Positions 18,392 to 60,285 of a stretch of 64,000 nucleotides of DNA are shown here, in pieces; position 1 is the stretch's first letter; each line of letters begins with the position of its first letter. A model generated the notes under the pieces. The model did no database searches. It was given only the letters and a program-made list of their open reading frames with translations, and was not told the DNA's origin. The position numbers and the translations under genes were made by a program. This stretch comes from an uncultured Lachnospiraceae bacterium (GTDB lineage: Bacteria > Bacillota > Clostridia > Oscillospirales > CAG-272), in contig CAZMAF010000001.1 of the NCBI GenBank assembly GCA_964564225.1, positions 12,980-76,979 of the forward strand. Direction: 5' to 3'.

Positions 18392-20416
18392 TTATTTTTG
18401 ATCGTTTTTGGTATAGACGAGGCTTCCCTCGATCTTTTCGACTTTGATTGCCCTTACCTCAAAGTAATCGAAAAGCGAAAATTGCCATTCGATCGGATAG
18501 GAGTCGAGGTAGCGGAAGATTTTGTGCATAATTTCGTCACGTTTCTGATCTGTACCGCCGTAAAAATGAACGATGAAAGCGCTTGTGAAAAAGTTTTCCG
18601 AAACCGTCTTTCTGACGAGGTAGATATTTTCGATAATATTTTCTCCGACCGAGAGAATGAACCTTACGATTTCTTCGCGCATTTCGTCCGGCATTGTGTC
18701 ACGCGAGAGTTTATCGCCTTTTTCAAGATAACCCGCTTTATCGTCCTCGTCCTTGTTTTTCTGTGTGAGCGCGAGGGCGCGGCTTCGGTAGTCGGAAAGC
18801 GCTTTTTCTCTGCCTGTAATACAGCAGAACAGCCCAATCAGCGAAAGACCGTCCTCTAAATAGTTGTGATTGTTTTCGATGGCGTGATAGATGTAGTCAA
18901 GCCCTTGTTCATCGTAGCGGTAGAGAAGGTAACAGCCTTTTGTGAAGTATGCCTGATATGCGGAGGCGTCGGGCAGGGTTTCGATCGCTTCGTCACAAAG
19001 CGTTTCGGCATCGTGAAAACGGCAGAGCGATTCGAGCGCTTCGATTACGTCAGCATAGTTTTCAGCGAGGATCGGTTTTCCTTCTGCTTCCCATGCGGTC
19101 ACGTCTTTCAGCGGATCAAGATAGCGTTTCTGACGGTCATCGGCGTAGGTTTTTTCGCGCGCTTCAAAAATTGTCTGTTCTGCGGCTGCCAGCGCTTTGT
19201 TAAGCTCGTTTTGATATGCGGGGTTGTTTTCGGAAAACAGCGGTTTAATATCCTGTATGCCAAAGCTATCAAGGCGCATTCTGAGGGTGGGGTGCGTTGC
19301 GTTATTGGCAATGATTTCAAGGGCAATCATTGCATTCCAATCGTTCTTGCGTGTGGCGATCGCTTGCTGCAAACGGTTAAGATGAGTTTTGATATAATCG
19401 GACGTCGGGCTTTCAGCTTGATAGAGGGGGATTTCATCGACGGCGTTGCTTTCAAAGCGATAGAAATTTTCGTATTCGAGCTTGATGAGTGCTGAGGCGG
19501 CAATTTCGGCAGAGGTGTTTCGGGACATTGCGCTGTCGGCATCGTTTTCCTCCAAAATCGCACTCGCGTACTGATATACGTTGTAATAGAGAGCGTAGGG
19601 AAGGTCAAAGAGCAAAAAGAAACCGGAAAGACGGTCGGCGCGCTCGTCGCCGTAAGGGGAAATCCCTATTCTTTCGTAATGGTCTTTTTCGGTAAACCGT
19701 CTTTTATGCTTGTCGGTGACGTGTGCGAACTCGTGCAGGAGGATGGCATACAGTTCATCTTCTGACAAAAGATGAAGCAGTAGAATGCCGAGCGTTAAAA
19801 AACAGCGGTTTTGATCGGTGACGATCGAGGCGTTGGCATCGTAGGCGAGAACGGTTATTACTTCTTGGTTTACGTCGAGTGCCTTTTTTGCGCGTTCGAT
19901 CTGTGTGTGCAGGACAGGATAGTCCTCCTTTGACAGTACGGTGGTGGTTTCGCTGATGGAAAGTTCCTTTTTTTGCGGTATACGCGCGCCGGCGGCAAGA
20001 AATAAAATGCCGCCGCCGAGGATACCAACGGCAAGGAAAGCTTTGCTGAGGAAATAAAGCATACCGCCCGAAAAGGCAAGCGCTATGGCGATCAGGGCAA
20101 GGAGCAGTGTATAGACGGTGACTGACACGCGGAGCGTTTTCAGCTTTTTCAGAAGTGTGTTTGCCGATTCTTTTGCTTTCTCACGGTGCTTCAGAAGATA
20201 GCTTTGCCCTTCAGCAATCTTTGTGTTATGAAGCTTTGCGAAAAGGGTTTTGGCAAAAATCGTATGTAGGATATAGAGAATGGCGGAAAGTGAGAGGGTC
20301 AGAATAAAAGAGGTGAGCGCTACGGCTTGAGTTTCGGGATATGCCGTGCTGAGCGCGATACCGCCAAGAGAGATGAGAAAGGAAAAGAGCAGACTTAAAA
20401 TAATTGGTTTTTTCAT
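18392..20416 (-). CDS. Membrane-anchored M48-family (HtpX/Ste24-like) zinc metallopeptidase with long helical C-terminal extension
   Basis: HEFAH zinc motif (LLHEFAHVTDKH). About 4 N-terminal TM helices. The ATG at 20416 has GAGGA upstream; the ORF track starts at TTG 20428. Confidence 0.8.
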   Translation of the reverse strand: MKKPIILSLLFSFLISLGGIALSTAYPETQAVALTSFILTLSLSAILYILHTIFAKTLFAKLHNTKIAEGQSYLLKHREKAKESANTLLKKLKTLRVSVTVYTLLLALIAIALAFSGGMLYFLSKAFLAVGILGGGILFLAAGARIPQKKELSISETTTVLSKEDYPVLHTQIERAKKALDVNQEVITVLAYDANASIVTDQNRCFLTLGILLLHLLSEDELYAILLHEFAHVTDKHKRRFTEKDHYERIGISPYGDERADRLSGFFLLFDLPYALYYNVYQYASAILEENDADSAMSRNTSAEIAASALIKLEYENFYRFESNAVDEIPLYQAESPTSDYIKTHLNRLQQAIATRKNDWNAMIALEIIANNATHPTLRMRLDSFGIQDIKPLFSENNPAYQNELNKALAAAEQTIFEAREKTYADDRQKRYLDPLKDVTAWEAEGKPILAENYADVIEALESLCRFHDAETLCDEAIETLPDASAYQAYFTKGCYLLYRYDEQGLDYIYHAIENNHNYLEDGLSLIGLFCCITGREKALSDYRSRALALTQKNKDEDDKAGYLEKGDKLSRDTMPDEMREEIVRFILSVGENIIENIYLVRKTVSENFFTSAFIVHFYGGTDQKRDEIMHKIFRYLDSYPIEWQFSLFDYFEVRAIKVEKIEGSLVYTKNDQK

Positions 20417-20452
20417 AAAAGTCCTCAACGTGTGGATAAGGTATATAGATAC

Positions 20453-20745: not shown

Positions 20746-20830
20746 TGGTGGGGGAAGGTGGATTCGGACCACCGAAAGCGAAGCTAACAGATTTACAGTC
20801 TGCCCCCTTTGGCCACTCGGGAATTCCCCC
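20746..20830 (-). tRNA. tRNA-Tyr (GUA), long variable arm, CCA encoded
   Basis: 85 nt. Acceptor GGGGGAA/TTCCCCC, anticodon loop CTGTAAA, T-loop GGTCCGAATCC. Confidence 0.95.
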
Positions 20831-20833
20831 ATA

Positions 20834-20908
20834 TGGAGCTGGTGAACGGAGTCGAACCATCAACCTGCTGATTACAAATCAGCTGCTCTGCCATTGAGCC
20901 ACACCAGC
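20834..20908 (-). tRNA. tRNA-Thr (UGU), CCA encoded
   Basis: 75 nt. Acceptor GCTGGTG/CACCAGC, anticodon loop TTTGTAA, T-loop GGTTCGACTCC. Confidence 0.95.
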
Positions 20909-22328: not shown

Positions 22329-22404
<76 letters not shown>

Positions 22405-26827: not shown

Positions 26828-26857
26828 AAAAAATCCGCCGATTTCGGCGGATTTTTT
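26828..26857. terminator. Bidirectional terminator shared by rbr and the TIR gene
   Basis: AAAAAATCCGCCG-attt-CGGCGGATTTTTT. Confidence 0.85.
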
Positions 26858-29800
26858 AGTTTGTTGGGGGTTGTTTGGTATGCTTTCGATCGGCGTTTTT
26901 CTTTATCGCGCGGTAGCGACAGCGCTTTACTGCAAGCACAAGGCGCTTGAAGATGGGAGCTTTGGCTTCGCGATAGGCTTTGGCAAGAAATGTGGCGGCG
27001 TCGAGTATGAAGTCGAGGAGATAGGCTTGCTTGTTTTTGCGGTAGAAATCTTGGGTATTTGTGAAATAGTCTTCTATGATTGAAACCGTGTCGGTGCCTG
27101 AATTATGAGCCGCATTGAGAAGCTTGATGATAATGTCGTAAATTCTTTGAAAATCTTTTTCTTCGTGGCTTTTCTTGAAAATTTCTTTTTGCGCCTCAAG
27201 TTCTTTTTGGTAATAAGAAAGTGCAACGGTATGGCGGTTGTGGTTTTCTGCTATTGTTGCAACCCAAGCATATTCTTGGACGAGGGTTTTCTCGAGTGTG
27301 CCTTCAGGATATTTTGATAGCACCGCCTTTAGTGCCTCGATAGATTGATCGTAGTAGTCAAGTGCTGAGTTGACGTCGCCAAGATAATTCGCCTCAGCGC
27401 CTTGCATTCGCAGGACGAGATGGTCGTGCATAGCGAGCTCCTTGAGAAGGTCTTCGTCATTGGCTTCGGGAAGATAGGTGGGATAAACATTCGGTTTTTC
27501 GTCACTGTGTACCCATGTATTCAGGTATGAGTATTCAGCAAAACCTCTGCGCATATCACCGCCGATCAACAAGATTTTAATATCTGCGAACATAAAGTAA
27601 AGCGCAAGCATATACTCTCCGTATGCGGTAGCCAATTCTTTCAATCTTTTATAGCTTTCTTTCAGCGCTTTTCGTGATTCTAAAGAGCTTGTTTCTCTTG
27701 CCAAAAGCTCACGAACGGTGAGTGCTTCCCGATACTTTTGGAAGGCAAGAGAAAATTCGCTTTTTTGGAAAGCGACATCGCCCCAGTCATCATAGCAGGT
27801 GGCAAGAATATATCGGGACTCGAGGGTGGACAAGGTTTCGCAAAACCGTTTGGCAAGAATAAATGCTTCCTGATAATCGTGCATGGCATCGTCAAGGCGG
27901 TTTTGTAATTTTGCCAGATGCGCTGAGCGGCGATAAGAGTAAAGAAGCGTTCGGCGAGTTTGATACGTATCGTTCTTCTTGAAAAGCTGTAATGCTTTCG
28001 CGTGGGAATCGTTTACATATGGGGCAGCGTCTGTGAAGCTTTGGGTACGAAGAAATATATCGGCAATGGCACCGATGATATTGGTATATTCAAGTTTTAT
28101 TTCCGTATTGTCGGCGTAGTCTTGTATGCGCTCCAATAGGCTTTTTGCTTTTGTATAGTTTTGGATGGCAAAGAGAAGGTTGGCGGTCTCGGGATCACGA
28201 TCGAGGAACACTTTTCCGTAGATATGGGCAAATCCCGGACCGATATCCTTGTGGCTCAGCAGATTGCCGATGTGAATATGCGTGATGGCAAGAAGGTGTG
28301 TGGTTTCAGACGTATTTGCGGTATCTGCCATGACGGTAGCGATCGACAAAGCTTTTTCATATTCGCGATAGGCTTCACTTAGCGCATCGGCAGCGATGTG
28401 AAAATCACCGTAATGGATATAGCTGTTCCACAAACTGCGTTTGGCATCGAAACTTTCGTCTGTCTCGGCGATTTTCTCTCGAATTTCAAGAGCGTTGCGG
28501 TAATGCCTCATAGCTGTGTTGAGGTTTTCGGTGCTTTTTTCTACTTGACCGAGGCCGTCATAGCAGTGCGCCTGATAGGATAGCGCCCAGCTTGGGTTGA
28601 GCCTTTCGGCGACCGCAAGTGTGGTGTCGAGTGCCGTTTGAAAGGTAGCATGGGTATTTTTATAGTCACAAAGAACAAAATAGGCATCACCGAGAGAAAG
28701 CAGAGCGTCTATGTAGCTTTTGGCGTTCTCTTCGCTGCCGCTGTTTTCAAATGCGCGCTGATAGTGGTTGACCAGCTTTTCCTGCCACTTGATGGCTGTG
28801 TGAAGGTCACGCTCGACACCCTCGCCGTTTTCGTACATCGTAACGAGCTTTTCTATTGCCTCGGGGAGGTCTCTCTCGGCGGCAAAGGTGATCATATCAA
28901 GCGCGCGGGTGGGATTTTTCTCGACGTCGATGCCCGAAAGATAGGCAAGACCGATGAGGAAGTTGTGTCTGGGATCGTCGTCGTTATCGCGGAGCATGAC
29001 CCACTGAAAGGCATCGAGCAGGGCATCTCGCAGGGCTTCGGCGTTTTGGCTGTTGATCGCATTCCGAATGCCGCTGTAGGCGTTCGCGAGAGCCGCGCGG
29101 TCGGTGGGGACGAGCTCGACGGGCAGGACGGTTTTCTCAGCCGCCTTTGCCATCGGGTATTCGACCGTCATGATGTAGTTTTCCTCGCTGACGAGGTTGG
29201 GGGTGACGGCAAGGGCGAAGAGCTTGCTTTTTTTGAGAGCCTCGGCGATCGTGTCGTTGAAATTCTCGCCGGGCGTTAAAAACTCGTCGTACCAGATGGC
29301 GATATCGCGGCAAAAATCGTTTTTGTGGATCAGCTCCATCAGCTCTTTGGCGTACTTACGGTCTTTTTTACGGTAAGAGAGAAAAATATAGGCGTCAAAA
29401 GCAGCTCGGATCTCCTCGGCAAGCGTATCGCCGACGAGGATCGCGGTGAGATAATTTTTGAGCTTATCTTCGTAAGAGATCGCGGTATTGTCGCGCGCGT
29501 TTTTGTCAAGATACTGCAGATCCCCGCATTTTTGGTTGAAAAGCTCGTCGAGTCCCGATTCCTGCATCAGGGGGAGAATGGGGATATGATTCATTTTGGC
29601 AAACGGGATATCCACCCGGGTGACGTAGCAATCCTGCATCAGCAGATTGGTTGTGACAGGCAGGACAAAGAGGTTCATTTCGTTAAGATTGTGAAAATGC
29701 TCGTCTTGGTCAAAGTCATCCCCCGGCGCGTGGTACACGGCGCAGTCGACGTAGGAAAGAATTTCGTCGGCAATCGCATCAAACAGATGAAGATCACAGG

Positions 29801-29876
29801 GTCGGCAGGCGAAATACACCTTGGGCTTGTCTTGCGGCGAAGCGTTGCCCCTTGTTTTATAAATGAAATTTCCCAT
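26856..29876 (-). CDS. Tandem TIR-domain / Sel1-repeat / TPR-like repeat protein (1006 aa)
   Basis: The real start is ATG 29876 (GGAGG RBS and its own promoter); the ORF-track N-terminal 92 aa are spurious. Residues ~162-255 read IFLSYRKKD...WYDEF...LFALAVTPN...TVEYPMA (TIR/TIR_2 pattern). Residues ~17-103 are a degenerate TIR-like copy. Sel1-like repeats follow (LAYLSGIDVEKN..., MYENGEGVERD...), then about 650 aa of helical repeats. Confidence 0.8.
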   Translation of the reverse strand: MGNFIYKTRGNASPQDKPKVYFACRPCDLHLFDAIADEILSYVDCAVYHAPGDDFDQDEHFHNLNEMNLFVLPVTTNLLMQDCYVTRVDIPFAKMNHIPILPLMQESGLDELFNQKCGDLQYLDKNARDNTAISYEDKLKNYLTAILVGDTLAEEIRAAFDAYIFLSYRKKDRKYAKELMELIHKNDFCRDIAIWYDEFLTPGENFNDTIAEALKKSKLFALAVTPNLVSEENYIMTVEYPMAKAAEKTVLPVELVPTDRAALANAYSGIRNAINSQNAEALRDALLDAFQWVMLRDNDDDPRHNFLIGLAYLSGIDVEKNPTRALDMITFAAERDLPEAIEKLVTMYENGEGVERDLHTAIKWQEKLVNHYQRAFENSGSEENAKSYIDALLSLGDAYFVLCDYKNTHATFQTALDTTLAVAERLNPSWALSYQAHCYDGLGQVEKSTENLNTAMRHYRNALEIREKIAETDESFDAKRSLWNSYIHYGDFHIAADALSEAYREYEKALSIATVMADTANTSETTHLLAITHIHIGNLLSHKDIGPGFAHIYGKVFLDRDPETANLLFAIQNYTKAKSLLERIQDYADNTEIKLEYTNIIGAIADIFLRTQSFTDAAPYVNDSHAKALQLFKKNDTYQTRRTLLYSYRRSAHLAKLQNRLDDAMHDYQEAFILAKRFCETLSTLESRYILATCYDDWGDVAFQKSEFSLAFQKYREALTVRELLARETSSLESRKALKESYKRLKELATAYGEYMLALYFMFADIKILLIGGDMRRGFAEYSYLNTWVHSDEKPNVYPTYLPEANDEDLLKELAMHDHLVLRMQGAEANYLGDVNSALDYYDQSIEALKAVLSKYPEGTLEKTLVQEYAWVATIAENHNRHTVALSYYQKELEAQKEIFKKSHEEKDFQRIYDIIIKLLNAAHNSGTDTVSIIEDYFTNTQDFYRKNKQAYLLDFILDAATFLAKAYREAKAPIFKRLVLAVKRCRYRAIKKNADRKHTKQPPTN

Positions 29877-29904
29877 AATTGCCTCCGTCTTTGTCGTTAC
29901 CGAC

Positions 29905-29933
29905 AGTATAGCATATTGCAACAAAAGTGTCAA
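29905..29933 (-). promoter_or_regulatory. Dedicated promoter of the TIR gene
   Basis: On the minus strand, TTGACA-17 nt-TATACT, about 28 nt upstream of the ATG. Confidence 0.7.
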
Positions 29934-30190
29934 TGATTTTTGGTGAAACTGAGGAAAAACGAAAGCGTTTTTGGCCTTCTCTTGGCAAAAACAGTGTTGT
30001 CGGGTATAATGATAACAATGACAGATTTGCCCCGAATGCCGATGAAAAGAGGGGCAAAGCGCAACCGTCGGTTGCGTTTCCAGGGCTTTCAAAAAACGCG
30101 CCCGTTGGTTGCGCTTCTTAGCTTTTATCGGACATTTTTCGTTCATTTTCAAAGATTTTTGAAGTTTTTTGGGATTTTCGGAAAAAACTA

Positions 30191-51902: not shown

Positions 51903-52165
51903 TGTAAACGCAATGATGAAGGTCATGCAGGGTCAAAAGTCACTTTCAGAGAGCCGACGGATGCTGTGAGTCGGTAGGGGCTGACAATGCAAGCTCGCCT
52001 TCGTAGCGGAGCTTTTGAAATAGCAGTAAAAGGCTACGGTTTGCCCCGTTATCACGGCATAGGACTTATTTTGAGTCCGATCAGAGTGGTCATTTATGGC
52101 AATTCGGGTGGTACCGACGATATTTATCGTCCCCGAAGCGAAAGCTTCGGGGACGTTTTATTTTG
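51903..52165 (+). promoter_or_regulatory. T-box leader (probable Leu, CUC specifier) with terminator
   Basis: GA motif AAUGAUGAAGG, CAGAGAG bulge, and distal loop GGAUGCUGUGA. The T-box sequence AAUUCGGGUGGUACCG is at 52101-52116. The terminator CGUCCCCGAAGC/GCUUCGGGGACG plus a U run is at 52128-52159. The candidate specifier CUC is at 51994-51996, from a manual fold. Confidence 0.85.
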
Positions 52166-56180: not shown

Positions 56181-59100
56181 TTAGTCGATTGATGAGCCGT
56201 AAGGCGTATTGTAGAATGCGTTAAGTGCGATGGCTTCGACAAGCGCCGAGCTGTCGTTGATCAAAACGGTAGCAAGCGCGGTACAATCAGTGAAGATATA
56301 GCTGCCGAATACCGTAGCGTTTGCCAGATTAACGGTGTTGAGCTTGGTGCAGCCTGCGAAAGCGTAGTCTCCAATTTCGGTTGCCGTATTGGTGAAGCTC
56401 GTGAGCAGTACGCATCCCTCAAAGGCGTGTGCGCCGATCTTGGTAACAGTCTTGGGAAGCGTCAGTGTGTTGACCTTGTTCAGACCGGCAAATGCGTAAT
56501 CACCGATTTCACTGATATTCTTTACGGTAACAGCGGTAATGATGGGCGCATAAGCTGACCAAGGCGCGTTTTCCATTGACGTGAAGGAGGGCATTGCGAC
56601 TGCCGTCTCTTCGTCGCATACGATCTCAAGCGTGCCGTTCAGCTTAACGGTAGCGGTGATTTTGCCGTTGGCAAGCGAGAAGGTGGCAATGGCGGTGCTA
56701 AGATTGGAAGCTGCAACGTAGCCGTTCCATTTGCTGTTTTCGTCCAATTCGTAACCTTCAGCCGTCTTGGTGATGGTGAAGTAACAGTAGATCGGTGCGC
56801 CTGCAAGGACGTTGTTGCCGAGAGTAGGCGCATTGCCCGTGAGCTGAATCTTTGCAAGATTTACGCAATTTGCGAAAGCTTCATCGCCGATCGTCTGGAC
56901 GTTGCCATCAAGCTTGATTTCGGTGATGGCGGTGTTCTTGAATGCCTTTGCGCCGATCGTTTCGGGTTTGCTCTTGATTGAAATGGTAGCGAGAGCGGAG
57001 CAGTTTTCAAATGCGGAATCGCCGATGGTCGTACCGTAGATCGTAGCCGAGGTGAGCGATGCACAATCCTTGAAAGCTTCGTTGCCGATTACGGTAACAG
57101 TTGTGGGAAGTGTGACGGTGGTAAGCGCGGTGTTCGTGAAGGCTTTTGCGCCAACCGTTGTAAGCGCGGTGTTTGACGTGAATTTTACGAGCTGTGCGCA
57201 GTTCATAAAGGCTTCGTCTTTAATTTCGGTGATACCCTTCGAGAGTGTAACTTCGGTAAGAGCGGTATTCTTGAATGCGCCGATTCCGATGGTCGTCAGC
57301 TCATCGTTTTGGAGTTCAACGGTTGTCAGATTGATACAATCCGCGAAAGCGTAGTCGCCAATCGAGGTGTTGACCGTATCAAGAGTGATGGTCGTGATTG
57401 CGGTGTGATCGGCAAATGCGTAATTACCGATTCCGGTAACGTTTTTCAGCGTGACCTTGTTGATCTGATGACGGTATGCATACCACGGAACTTCGGATGC
57501 CGAGGCGTAATCGGGAATTGCTACCGAACCGCTGATAACAAGCTCGCCGTTGTATTTCAGCTCTACCGTCAGACCGTCGGGAAGATTGTCAAAATCGTTT
57601 TTAAACACGGACGTGGGTTGGTTGCTGGTTATGTTGTAGCCATTCCATTTGCCGTTTTCATCAACGACGAAGGTGGTGTTGTTCGATGAATATTTGAAGA
57701 ATGTCATTACCATGTCGCTGCTGATGACATTTTTACCGATTACGGGAGCGTCGCCGTTAAAGGTAATGGTAAGAAGCGTTTTGCAGTTAGCAAATGCTTC
57801 GTCGCCGATCTGTTCAACAGACTTGGAAAGAGCAAACGAGGTGATTGACGTACCCTTAAATGCAGAAGCGCCGATTTCTTTCAGCGGTACGCCGGTACCG
57901 ACACCGATCGTAGTGAGCGACGTACAGTTTTCAAATGCTGATGCGCCGATTGATTCAAATGCCGCGCCGAATTTTGCAATAGAGATGGCGGTGTTCATAA
58001 AGGAACGGTTACCAATCGAAACGAGCGTTGCAGGGAAGTTGATTGTAGCAAGGGCGGTACAGCCTTCAAATGCCGATGCGCCGATCGTCGTTATTGTTTC
58101 AGGGAGTGTAACTTCGGTAACTTCGGTATTGCCTTTGAGGAAATTGTTGCCGATGCCGACAACCGTACCGTTTTTGTAGGTTTTGTGGATATTAAGCAAG
58201 GTAGCAGTGCCGTTATAGCCCGTAAGGATATACTGATCGGTCGTACCTGCTTTAAGTTCAGCGGTGAGTTCGTCGTTGCTGGCGTAACCGGAGTGACCGA
58301 GAGAGGTGAAGGTGAGTCCGAGACCGGAAAGATAGGTGTCAACCGCGCCTCCGGTGAAAGCATGAACTTCGGTTGTGGTGACGGGTGTATTCACGCCGTT
58401 TATCTGAACGATGCAGATAGAACCCTTGATGATCTTCGTGATCGTGTCGGGAAGAACGATCTTTTTGATTTTAGGGCAGTTGAGAAAGGCGTTAAGAGCG
58501 AGTTCGGTCGTATAGGGACTGAGCGTTACGTCTTCCAGCGCCGAGCATCCCGAGAAGGCGCCGTTCTGAATAGCGAGCATCGAATCGGGAATGACAATGG
58601 ATTTTAAGGAAGTACAGTAAGTAAAGATAAGCTGAGGAACTGCGGAAAGCGTCGTGCCTTCAGCAAAGGTAAAGCTTTCGAGTGAAGAACAATATGCAAA
58701 TACCGAAATACCAAGCTCGGTAACGCTTGCGGGAAGCGTAAAGCTGCGGAGCGCGGTATACGAGAATGCGCTGGCGCCGATTGCGGTAAGCTCGCCCTCG
58801 ATGTTGACGGTCGCGAGCTTGTCACACTTGAAGAACAAGCGATCGCTGATCTCGGTCAGGGTATCGGGCAGAGTGATTGATTCAAGGCCGGTGCAGTATG
58901 CAAATGCGCCGATGTCGAGCGTTTTGACCTTTTCGGGAAGGGTGACGGTCTTGAGAGCCGAACAGCCGTAGAAGGCATAAGAGCCGATATAGTCGATCTT
59001 TGTGCCGAAAGAAACTTCATTCAGTGAAGAGCAGTTGTAGAACGCATACTTCGGAATATAGGTAATGCTTTCGGGAAGCTTTAATTCGGTAAGCGAGGTG

Positions 59101-59882
59101 CAGTCGTAGAAAGCTCTTTCGCCGATCGCCTTGATGGTATTGCTGAAGGTGAAGGTTTTAAGCGACGAGCAGAAGGAAAAGGCTTCCGCACCGATGGTAG
59201 TGACGGTTGCGGGAATGTCTATGCTTTCAAGCGACGGGCAATGCGCGAAGGTCTGGTTCTTGATTGCGGTGATATTCGCAGGCAACTTGACCGATTTCAA
59301 CGATACGCAGTTGTAGAAGGTATCGTCGCCCATCGTGGTAACCGAGTCAGGAAGGACAATGGTTGTCAATGCTTCACAGAAACGGAAAGCACCGTCATTC
59401 ATTGTGGTAAGCGTTGAGGGGAGCGATACATCGGTAAGGTTACGGCAGCTATAAAATACGTCGTGACCGAGTGCTACGATTCCTTCGCTGACGGTGATCT
59501 TGGTTGCCGTCAGATCTCTGAGCGCAGAGTTTCCGATCTGCGTTACGTTAACGGCGCCCGATTTGATTGTCGAGGGAATTACAATTTCGGTATCTTTTCC
59601 CGTATAAGAAAGAAGCTTAGCGTGATCGGCAAAGACCATATAGGTGAAGTCGCCTTCAACATATTCCGGTTCGACGGCTTCGCTTGACTTATTACCGAAT
59701 TCGTCAGTCGTTGCGTAGACGACCGGTGACGTTGCGGTGGTAGTTAACGTACTGCCGCTATCCGTCGTGCTGACGGTTTGACTGGTTGTGGTTTGGACAG
59801 AGCTGATCGGATCTTCGCCGCAAGCGGTGATCGCTGCAACGATGAGGACGAGCATTGCCAAAAGGACGATGAGTTTCTTCAT
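56181..59882 (-). CDS. Large surface lipoprotein with BspA-type leucine-rich repeats
   Basis: 1233 aa. Signal peptide with lipobox (LIVAAITAC), a Thr/Ser-rich linker, then dozens of ~23-aa units of the type LxxVxLPxxVTxIGxxAFxxCxxL. Confidence 0.85.
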   Translation of the reverse strand: MKKLIVLLAMLVLIVAAITACGEDPISSVQTTTSQTVSTTDSGSTLTTTATSPVVYATTDEFGNKSSEAVEPEYVEGDFTYMVFADHAKLLSYTGKDTEIVIPSTIKSGAVNVTQIGNSALRDLTATKITVSEGIVALGHDVFYSCRNLTDVSLPSTLTTMNDGAFRFCEALTTIVLPDSVTTMGDDTFYNCVSLKSVKLPANITAIKNQTFAHCPSLESIDIPATVTTIGAEAFSFCSSLKTFTFSNTIKAIGERAFYDCTSLTELKLPESITYIPKYAFYNCSSLNEVSFGTKIDYIGSYAFYGCSALKTVTLPEKVKTLDIGAFAYCTGLESITLPDTLTEISDRLFFKCDKLATVNIEGELTAIGASAFSYTALRSFTLPASVTELGISVFAYCSSLESFTFAEGTTLSAVPQLIFTYCTSLKSIVIPDSMLAIQNGAFSGCSALEDVTLSPYTTELALNAFLNCPKIKKIVLPDTITKIIKGSICIVQINGVNTPVTTTEVHAFTGGAVDTYLSGLGLTFTSLGHSGYASNDELTAELKAGTTDQYILTGYNGTATLLNIHKTYKNGTVVGIGNNFLKGNTEVTEVTLPETITTIGASAFEGCTALATINFPATLVSIGNRSFMNTAISIAKFGAAFESIGASAFENCTSLTTIGVGTGVPLKEIGASAFKGTSITSFALSKSVEQIGDEAFANCKTLLTITFNGDAPVIGKNVISSDMVMTFFKYSSNNTTFVVDENGKWNGYNITSNQPTSVFKNDFDNLPDGLTVELKYNGELVISGSVAIPDYASASEVPWYAYRHQINKVTLKNVTGIGNYAFADHTAITTITLDTVNTSIGDYAFADCINLTTVELQNDELTTIGIGAFKNTALTEVTLSKGITEIKDEAFMNCAQLVKFTSNTALTTVGAKAFTNTALTTVTLPTTVTVIGNEAFKDCASLTSATIYGTTIGDSAFENCSALATISIKSKPETIGAKAFKNTAITEIKLDGNVQTIGDEAFANCVNLAKIQLTGNAPTLGNNVLAGAPIYCYFTITKTAEGYELDENSKWNGYVAASNLSTAIATFSLANGKITATVKLNGTLEIVCDEETAVAMPSFTSMENAPWSAYAPIITAVTVKNISEIGDYAFAGLNKVNTLTLPKTVTKIGAHAFEGCVLLTSFTNTATEIGDYAFAGCTKLNTVNLANATVFGSYIFTDCTALATVLINDSSALVEAIALNAFYNTPYGSSID

Positions 59883-60112: not shown

Positions 60113-60126
60113 AACAATGTCGAAAA

Positions 60127-60285
60127 TATAGTCGGGGGTGCTTTACGCTGAGACGGCTTTTTGCCGAACCCCAATAACCTGATGCGGATAATGCCGCCGT
60201 AGGAAGATTATACTCTTTTCGGGAAATTTCGTTTTAAGCTTACGAAACCGGTAGATTCTTCCACGGCTTTTGCCGTGGTTTTTTT
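60127..60285 (+). promoter_or_regulatory. TPP (THI-box) riboswitch with terminator expression platform
   Basis: GGGGUGC...GCUGAGA...ACCC...AACCUGAUGCGGAUAAUGCCGCCGUAGGAA (60127-60212), then the CCACGGC-tttt-GCCGTGG hairpin with T7 (60261-60285). Confidence 0.9.

Follow-up and report, generated by a model that had tools for sequence, protein, structure and literature searches.

TIR enzymes play a central part in bacterial, plant and animal immunity, and the gating of their activity is an active question. In Escherichia coli, the TIR-II system joins a TIR domain and tetratricopeptide repeats (TPRs) in one protein, which acts against phages and needs its TIR active site to do so. Of the new TIR systems in E. 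coli, TIR-II has the widest distribution, and some of its relatives add an ATPase or split the TIR and TPR parts over two genes (PMC11350192). SpbK is a one-protein TIR NADase that is activated when the phage portal YonE clusters its TIR domains, and TIR NADase activity needs head-to-tail TIR assemblies (PMC12847820). The ThsB TIRs of Thoeris systems make signalling molecules, ~30 effector types are predicted, and type VIII Thoeris combines a TIR protein with ThsI, which carries a CMP-hydrolase domain and TPRs (10.64898/2025.12.03.692087). The BcTir/BcTpr architecture is the same as that of type VIII Thoeris (10.1101/2023.05.26.542521). We found no bacterial tandem-TIR/Sel1/TPR protein described in the literature, and the only tandem-TIR case retrieved was TirE of Dictyostelium. 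Here we describe such a protein, encoded by one gene (26856..29876, minus strand; 1006 codons plus stop) in a 64,000-nucleotide stretch of DNA, hereafter the window, from an uncultured Lachnospiraceae bacterium (GCA_964564225.1, contig CAZMAF010000001.1). We read it as a cytoplasmic, repeat-gated TIR NADase, likely serving conflict or abortive-infection defence, and we put the probability of this combined statement at roughly one half.

The second domain of the protein is a canonical TIR_2 domain (residues 162-258; window 29103..29393, minus strand), assigned from Pfam, conservation, an alignment to SARM1 and Foldseek. Pfam TIR_2 (PF13676) matched residues 164-258 with an E value of 2.8e-10 and 41.2 bits (cut-off 28). 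The motifs IFLSYRKKD, WYDEF, LFALAVTPN and TVEYPMA begin at residues 164, 195, 219 and 237. No other part of the protein is as constrained as this domain. In 120 homologues with just 33-56% overall identity, the block R157-A-F-D-A-Y-x-F-L-S-Y-R-K-K and the motifs W195-Y-D-E, L200-x-P-G, N233-Y and E239-x-P-x-A were all invariant. W195, Y196, D197, E198 and E239 were present in every one of the 120, and Y240 in 118. The BB-loop motif WYDE-x-L-x-PG (residues 195-203) was invariant in the domain, and 54 columns within residues 1-300 did not vary across 27 diverse homologues.

The conserved E239 (codon 29160-29162, minus strand) pairs with the catalytic E642 of human SARM1, and the two proteins share the same ungapped E-x3-A-x3-G-K-x-I-[LV]-P spacing. 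The SARM1 query was identical in sequence to the chains in the PDB, and counting along it puts the aligned glutamate at residue 642. On account of this alignment, with which the acidic residue kept in the first domain agrees, we accept E239, as judged from sequence, as the glutamate at the catalytic position of TIR NADases.

The N-terminal domain (residues 1-117, or ~5-117; window 29526..29876, minus strand) resembles a degenerate second TIR. By itself it was recognised by none of Pfam, NCBIfam and PADLOC, and its family profile had no significant sequence match in the PDB. Its TIR nature was deduced from an internal profile-profile match together with the predicted topology. When the family profiles of residues 20-103 and 164-253 were compared with hhalign, they matched with a probability of 97.2% and an E value of 4e-11, and D89 (codon 29610-29612, minus strand) was paired with E239. 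BLASTP of the two halves of the head gave 33% identity over 64 residues. Position 89, which lies in the motif RVDIPFA beginning at residue 87, was acidic in 106 of the 120 homologues, with Glu in 76 and Asp in 30. The WYDE/PGE loop motif is missing from this domain. In the AlphaFold2 model, it adopts a β-α-β-α arrangement with a predicted local distance difference test score (pLDDT) of 84-95. Taken together, profile and model indicate that the N-terminal domain is a diverged TIR copy. The two TIR-type domains are joined by a conserved helical linker (residues 118-160; window 29396..29525, minus strand), delimited by conservation and by the predicted helices 135-147 and 150-159, in which L123 and D129 are invariant.

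The two domains are followed by repeats. Two Sel1-like repeats (residues ~300-370; window 28767..28979, minus strand) still belong to the conserved head. Pfam Sel1 matched two stretches with 27.2 bits, slightly under the cut-off of 30.7, and H304, G309, A311, Y312, L313, G315 and W364 are among the residues of this region that are invariant in the family. Compared with the orthologues, this region was 77-85% identical. The variable part is a TPR-like α-solenoid (residues ~371-1000; window 26877..28766, minus strand), defined by Pfam TPR matches, AlphaFold2 and Foldseek. TPR_12 scored above its cut-off, and TPR_2 and several further TPR families also matched. NCBIfam returned nothing specific for the protein. 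PADLOC gave only weak matches, to TPR and to ThsB1, the latter (E value of 7.7e-5, 20 bits) spanning only the generic TIR core. The Walker A motif ([AG]xxxxGK[ST]) was not found in the protein, and it occurred anywhere in just 5 of 120 homologues; the Pfam and NCBIfam scans contained no NTPase family. The N-terminus is hydrophilic and has no signal peptide, and the protein is predicted to be cytoplasmic. The peak 19-residue hydropathy was 1.63, with one borderline helix at residues 755-773 (window 27558-27614; YMLALYFMFADIKILLIGG). This helix marks the end of family-wide conservation and a pLDDT drop to 52-68. It is probably a buried helix of the solenoid; a membrane-associating segment is the alternative.

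The full-length AlphaFold2 model was built from an 81-sequence alignment and reached a pLDDT of 88.1 and a predicted TM score of 0.75. It contains two β-α-β-α domains, with strands at residues 19-22, 46-49, 69-74 and 100-104 in the first and at 162-167, 192-196, 219-224 and 249-254 in the second. Thereafter an unbroken helical solenoid extends from about residue 279 to 1000, with the TPR part all-helical over ~630 residues. A Foldseek search with the full model returned generic TPR solenoids only (Ctr9, Ski3, LGN, OGT), and a separate model of residues 1-300 was therefore predicted. This model (pLDDT 79) matched the TIRs of SARM1, AbTir, TLR1/2/10, TIR-STING and SPARTA; against AbTir (7uxu) the TM score was 0.73 and the root-mean-square deviation 3.0. 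Thus, the protein is predicted to contain the flavodoxin-like TIR fold. The layout is consistent with the preliminary description of the window, which had proposed a glutamate near residue 239 at the usual catalytic site of bacterial TIR NADases, a degenerate second TIR-like domain that carries Asp at the equivalent position, a tail of Sel1 and TPR-like repeats, and no P-loop. The profile and structure searches that it had recommended placed TIR_2 above its cut-off and the head among TIR folds.

The family to which this protein belongs is very large. A word-indexed search yielded 2743 clusters (90% identity) with E values of 1e-5 or lower among 8000 scored candidates, and the few named cluster members were "TIR domain-containing" or "tetratricopeptide repeat" proteins from metagenome-assembled genomes of Clostridia, Ruminococcaceae and Firmicutes. 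An exhaustive HMMER search with residues 1-290 found at least 1600 representatives of 50%-identity clusters (1607 at E values of 1e-30 or lower). In all of the best 150 of these 1607, the module lies at the extreme N-terminus, in proteins of 523-1903 residues. The source samples were animal guts, including those of goat, sheep, buffalo, roe deer, pika and human, and the family is confined to abundant uncultured Clostridia of the gut and rumen.

Conservation within the family is strongly graded along the chain. We computed the mean per-column identity to the window protein in 50-residue blocks over 80 family members. The identity was 0.84 at residues 151-200 and 0.64 at residues 301-350, fell to 0.12-0.29 over residues 401-750, and was at most 0.17 past residue 750, with a minimum block of 4%. 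The family therefore has a conserved head and a variable tail. The same gradient is seen between duplicated copies. One homologue with 47% identity to the window protein (P0004) shares its sequencing run with the window's own protein. The tetranucleotide correlation of its contig with the window was 0.969, compared with 0.948 for a contig belonging to the window itself and 0.33-0.87 for other Clostridia. Since the run is shared and the correlation is as high as that of the window's own contig, P0004 very probably represents a paralogue within the window's genome. It is 76% identical to the window protein in the N-domain, 80% in the TIR domain and 68% in the Sel1 region, falls to 21-26% in the TPR region, and has a different C-terminus. 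A tandem pair in another locus (L103) showed the same gradient, with 91, 84, 68 and 62%, and the copies L144 and L152, which share an 89-kb contig, are old paralogues at 37, 66, 44 and 23%. Two family copies occurred in 3 of 87 loci, and several paralogues are present in some genomes. Divergence after duplication is concentrated in the repeat tail.

Further features were noted around the copies. The P0004 gene (L003 577-3189) is adjacent to a radical-SAM gene and to a gene that fuses NT5C with guanylate kinase. In two loci (L135 and L137), a truncated copy (an open reading frame of 250-308 residues with no recognisable start) lies on the minus strand, divergent, beside the full-length gene, and looks like a decaying duplicate. 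Three genes for inosine-uridine nucleoside hydrolases (IU_nuc_hydro) surround another family member (P0032; L005 7036-12360), a setting that makes a link to ribose, nucleoside or ADP-ribose (ADPR) salvage possible.

The following steps, from NADase activity through autoinhibition by the repeats and gating by a ligand to a role in defence, are ones that we infer. The second domain, an intact TIR of the kind found in SARM1 and AbTir, would cleave NAD+ via E239. The first domain would most likely be a built-in partner, non-catalytic or weakly catalytic, for the TIR-TIR contacts that open the active site. The Sel1 pair and the variable TPR solenoid would keep this head inactive until the solenoid bound a specific protein or peptide ligand. 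Binding would release or cluster the TIR heads, and NAD+ would be consumed, with either depletion or an ADPR-derived product as the outcome. Each paralogue might be tuned to a different ligand in conflict or abortive-infection defence. This gating scheme is proposed because TIR activity needs head-to-tail contacts, repeats autoinhibit SARM1, and phage proteins cluster SpbK. The role in defence is plausible by analogy, and is favoured because the paralogues combine a conserved head with variable tails and because TIR-II provides a precedent.

Several observations weigh against this reading, concerning the active site, the tails and the genomic setting; housekeeping context and absence from mobile elements weaken the defence role in particular. 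At the active site, HMMER and hhalign alignments to AbTir put the glutamate of its NYE motif, which we take to be E208, opposite I235, four residues before E239. These alignments were anchored on the common WYDEF motif and then continued ungapped. AbTir has four extra residues between its glutamate and the GxK-x-ILP strand (βD), and the shift could be attributed, from sequence, to the longer αC-βD segment of AbTir. I235 was rejected as the structural equivalent of the AbTir glutamate, since the SARM1 alignment pairs the E, A, GK and I-[LV]-P residues without a gap and the AbTir segment is longer. As to the tails, one 804-residue orthologue (P0073-P0104) was 98-99.9% identical in 14 clusters, nominally split at 90% identity in the database, from many gut metagenomes. 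The tails are therefore stable within species, and hypervariability within species was rejected on this orthologue.

The core-gene setting, the synteny and the absence from plasmids and phages are unusual for a defence gene. We clustered the three nearest open reading frames on each side of the gene all against all in 87 family loci. No neighbour family recurred in more than 7 of these 87, and a conserved partner gene was accordingly rejected. This agrees with the earlier remark that the window gene, which is monocistronic, has no ThsA-like partner or other effector alongside. Pfam and PADLOC scans of 140 neighbouring open reading frames from ~70 non-redundant loci revealed no enrichment of defence genes, in a comparison made without a formal background control. 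The commonest Pfam families were ABC transporters, helix-turn-helix (HTH) regulators, response regulators, ClpP, major facilitator superfamily transporters and AMP-binding enzymes. The plausible defence matches were one McrBC, one MkoA and one MzaA, and the remaining PADLOC matches were generic cross-hits, such as mad3 on ABC ATPases and pVip on radical-SAM proteins. In tblastn searches, the family was found in 0 of 50,697 phage records, and 72,556 plasmids returned one distant TIR match only. A scan of IMG/VR placed the family at 2 loci among 2.9 million viral contigs. On these two contigs (L086 and L087), the gene lies in the last third and may be host DNA flanking a prophage. A mobile origin was rejected on the plasmid, phage and IMG/VR searches. 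The immune role put forward earlier did not gain from these results, with ordinary neighbours at ~70 loci and near-absence from plasmid, phage and viral sets, and it stays a role that we infer.

Synteny in a related genome argues in the same direction. The closest homologue with assembled flanks (P0002, 51% identity) is encoded in GCA_017508605.1 (L002) at the same junction between perR-rbr and tkt as in the window, except that a GxGYxYP gene is added next to tkt. The neighbouring genes are well conserved between the two genomes, with identities of 90% for rbr, 89% for tktC, 83% for tktN, and 77% for both perR and clp. The TIR-TPR protein itself is 51% identical overall, with 52% in the N-domain, 79% in the TIR domain, 85% in the Sel1 region, 44-48% in the TPR region and 35% at the C-terminus. 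A 71-nt promoter block (window 29905-29975; L002 9902-9972) is 90% identical, and such identity upstream of proteins that differ so much suggests a conserved regulatory site (CAGTTTCACCAAAAAT) directly upstream of the -35 box. Because the junction is the same and the promoter block is 90% identical, the gene and its regulatory region are orthologous and vertically inherited, and the coding sequence is diverging far more quickly than the genes around it. In L007, the next relative (tktN 75%), the genes upstream of tkt are GxGYxYP, malic enzyme and fumarase, with neither rbr nor a TIR gene, and a TIR gene was found within 8 kb of tkt in 0 of 78 more distant Clostridia tkt loci. The gene is therefore accessory at the scale of the order, yet it is no recent insertion. 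The preliminary description had asked for a comparison of the rbr-tkt interval among relatives: the gene is absent near tkt in L007 and in 78 genomes, but present in GCA_017508605.1. Only one repeat spans the gene, a weak, imperfect 16-nt direct repeat (D4, 88% identical), which is A-rich and has one copy in the terminator stem. It was dismissed as a chance match of A-rich sequence overlapping the terminator.

The main rival to a defence NADase is a non-immune regulatory NADase, which we consider unlikely. The protein would then be a physiological regulator, a repeat-gated TIR NADase or ADPR-signal generator that couples an endogenous cue, such as stress, sporulation or NAD/nucleotide status, to NAD+ turnover in spore-forming gut Clostridia. 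A chromosomal family outside defence islands and absent from mobile elements, with synteny and a conserved promoter in a related species, would suit such a regulator, as would the near-invariance of the 804-residue orthologue in many samples. Nucleotide or nucleoside enzymes stand beside some homologues (the three IU_nuc_hydro genes of L005 and the NT5C/guanylate-kinase gene of L003), and the window's genome has sporulation genes such as YqfD. However, no metabolic neighbour recurs. Since neither the next relative nor any of 78 other Clostridia has the gene at this junction, it is accessory, and the many paralogues with divergent TPR tails and variable C-termini suit many ligands better than one endogenous cue.

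A Thoeris-like producer is an improbable explanation. The TIR would make a cyclic-ADPR-type messenger upon infection, and an unlinked effector would respond. ThsB TIRs do yield signals and TPR partners are known, namely type VIII ThsI and BcTir/BcTpr (10.64898/2025.12.03.692087; 10.1101/2023.05.26.542521), and there is the weak PADLOC match to ThsB1. However, linkage to an effector-like gene was seen neither in the window nor in the 87 family loci, known Thoeris systems are operons, and long repeat tails are absent from ThsB proteins. It is quite improbable that the protein is a non-enzymatic scaffold whose TIR, TIR-like and TPR/Sel1 parts mediate protein assembly only. TPR and Sel1 are generic interaction modules, and animal TIRs such as the TLRs, which are also among the fold matches, are scaffolds. 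The invariance of the candidate catalytic glutamate and the BB-loop motif in homologues so divergent overall argues against this, as does the finding that SARM1 and AbTir, whose TIRs are NADases, gave the nearest fold and profile matches. The preliminary description's own version, a recent mobile single-gene defence cassette inserted between housekeeping operons, is very improbable and largely refuted by synteny: the gene is monocistronic with its own promoter and terminator, is absent beside tkt in L007 and more distant relatives and is spanned by the D4 repeat, but its orthologue and promoter occupy the same junction in GCA_017508605.1 despite 51% protein identity, its borders carry no integrase, transposase or tRNA, its G+C content is like that of the flanks, D4 is A-rich with one copy in the terminator stem, and the family is not on plasmids or phages.

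A more speculative reading, which we regard as doubtful, is that the family represents NTPase-free, chromosomally inherited NLR-like receptors of gut Clostridia. The pseudo-TIR and the catalytic TIR would form a pre-assembled asymmetric pair of activator and enzyme, in which a TPR ligand could trigger NAD+ cleavage without the filaments or resistosomes on which other TIR enzymes depend. The paralogues would be a receptor repertoire with a shared, possibly co-evolving head and differing sensor tails. As a chain that combines a degenerate with an intact TIR, the protein would in any case offer a simple system to ask whether one TIR purely activates another, and the family would be a repeat-gated TIR, on the gating proposed here, without an NTPase or a SAM oligomeriser. 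With at least 1600 clusters at 50% identity, it is very large, and systematic defence screens would miss it. A systematic Thoeris survey dropped stand-alone TIRs and demanded defence-island association (10.64898/2025.12.03.692087), which could explain why the family has been overlooked. Gut bacterial TIR domains cleave NAD+ in vitro, and the NAD-derived products of this family could likewise matter for NAD/ADPR chemistry in the gut (PMC9092222). If the role is non-immune, the family would be a rare case of housekeeping use of a bacterial TIR enzyme.

The gene is a monocistronic unit with its own signals. The start is the ATG at 29876 and the stop codon lies at 26856-26858; the mechanical open reading frame is longer (26856..30152, minus strand). 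A database record of the identical protein (P0001, 1021 residues) has its start annotated 15 codons too far upstream, at a TTG that would fall within the -10 box. We take ATG 29876 as the true start because GGAGG lies 5 nt upstream, because the 120 best homologues, all aligned from residue 1, start at the same Met, and because the TTG of P0001 lies inside the -10 box. A σ70-type promoter (TTGACA-17-TATACT with a TG extension; 29905..29933, minus strand) matched 11 of 12 positions in a consensus scan, and the ribosome-binding site GGAGG was read from the sequence at 29882..29886 (minus strand). A bidirectional intrinsic terminator (26828..26857) lies between the stop codons of the TIR gene and the converging rubrerythrin gene and is common to both. 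It comprises a 13-pair hairpin by consensus scan, recorded also as an inverted repeat (I6) with 14-nt arms of 100% complementarity, with an A tract upstream and a T tract downstream. The single-gene unit with these signals had been described beforehand, and each was located as described; every sequence detail of that first observation was borne out, and the quoted motifs stood at their given positions. Between the divergent TIR and tkt promoters, an inverted repeat with 23-nt arms (window 30057-30116) has a predicted RNA folding energy of -38.7 kcal/mol (z = -5.0). It occupies the position where the relatives L002 and L007 have the GxGYxYP gene, and may be an operator, or a relic terminator or insulator that has outlasted the lost gene.

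The surroundings are those of core genes, as had been noted before. One flank of the TIR gene carries an AraC-type regulator, an HTH membrane protein, DegV, a Fur-family (PerR-like) regulator and rubrerythrin, and the other carries a split transketolase, PTAC, a ClpP-like protease and DUF3137. The remaining genes of the window are housekeeping genes, such as those for MetG, YqfD, MutS2, RecJ and RelA. The G+C content over the TIR gene is 0.44-0.55, the same as in its surroundings, and no integrase, transposase or tRNA was seen at its borders. The tRNA genes for Tyr and Thr(TGT) on the minus strand and Thr(GGT) on the plus strand lie at 20746-20908 and 22329-22404, ~4.5 kb from the TIR gene. 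On the plus strand, the window also holds a T-box leader (94.9 bits; 51904-52137) and a thiamine pyrophosphate riboswitch (73.1 bits; 60124-60222). On the minus strand, 56181-59882 encodes a 1233-residue protein with BspA-type leucine-rich repeats over nearly its whole length (LRR_5, E value of 2e-199, 9 stretches). A putative open reading frame of 678 residues (18392-20428, minus strand) overlaps two shorter ones on the plus strand and had no Pfam family at E values of 1e-6 or lower.

Compared with the described systems, the window protein is closest in design to those that unite a TIR and repeats in one chain. The preliminary description did not know the design as a named defence architecture, a view that E. 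coli TIR-II, a validated single-protein TIR-plus-TPR antiphage system, corrects (PMC11350192). The likeness, drawn from the description of TIR-II and not from sequence, is that TIR and TPR are joined in one stand-alone protein. However, ~30% of TIR-II relatives carry an ATPase and the window family none. Neither a tandem TIR nor a Sel1 pair features in the description of TIR-II, and TIR-II also occurs in Caudoviricetes, whereas phage and viral collections contain essentially no member of the window family. By fold and profile, the TIR domain comes nearest to that of SARM1 (ARM repeats, tandem SAM, TIR), in which E642 corresponds to E239 and the αC-βD spacing is identical. In SARM1, α-solenoid repeats control a TIR NADase within one polypeptide, a control that is suggested for the window protein by analogy. 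The domain order is reversed, with the TIR N-terminal in the window protein, which has Sel1/TPR instead of ARM repeats and a degenerate TIR in place of the SAM oligomerisation module. SpbK is small and carried on the mobile element ICEBs1; the window gene is instead chromosomal and syntenic. The SpbK protein of Bacillus subtilis is also a one-protein TIR of Bacillota, with NADase activity predicted for the window protein, and its description mentions neither a repeat solenoid nor a tandem TIR.

Type VIII Thoeris and BcTir/BcTpr likewise combine a TIR, a second TIR-related domain of the N-glycosidase type and TPRs proposed as regulator or sensor, but as a two-gene operon in contrast to the single chain of the window protein. 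The TPR-fused domain of BcTpr is CMP-hydrolase/MilB-like, whereas the repeats of the window protein adjoin the canonical TIR_2 domain, and the TPR of BcTpr is short (residues 190-415 of a ~415-residue protein). MilB was outside the top 50 fold matches of the model of residues 1-300, and no TIR gene is adjacent to the window gene. Between rbr and tkt, no Thoeris effector gene (ThsA, ThsC-L) lies beside this monocistronic gene. TIR-bearing Avs and TIR-NLR (STAND) proteins are also large and cytoplasmic, with an N-terminal TIR and a C-terminal TPR-type sensor, but their central STAND/NACHT/NB-ARC NTPase is missing from the window protein, which has no Walker A motif. Dictyostelium TirE shares two diverged tandem TIRs and a repeat domain, a likeness again by description, but is eukaryotic and has RCC1 repeats (PMC13142454). 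Overall, the window protein, with its tandem TIR, Sel1 bridge, lack of an NTPase and vertical inheritance, is a variation on the known single-protein TIR-plus-repeat sensor-effectors.

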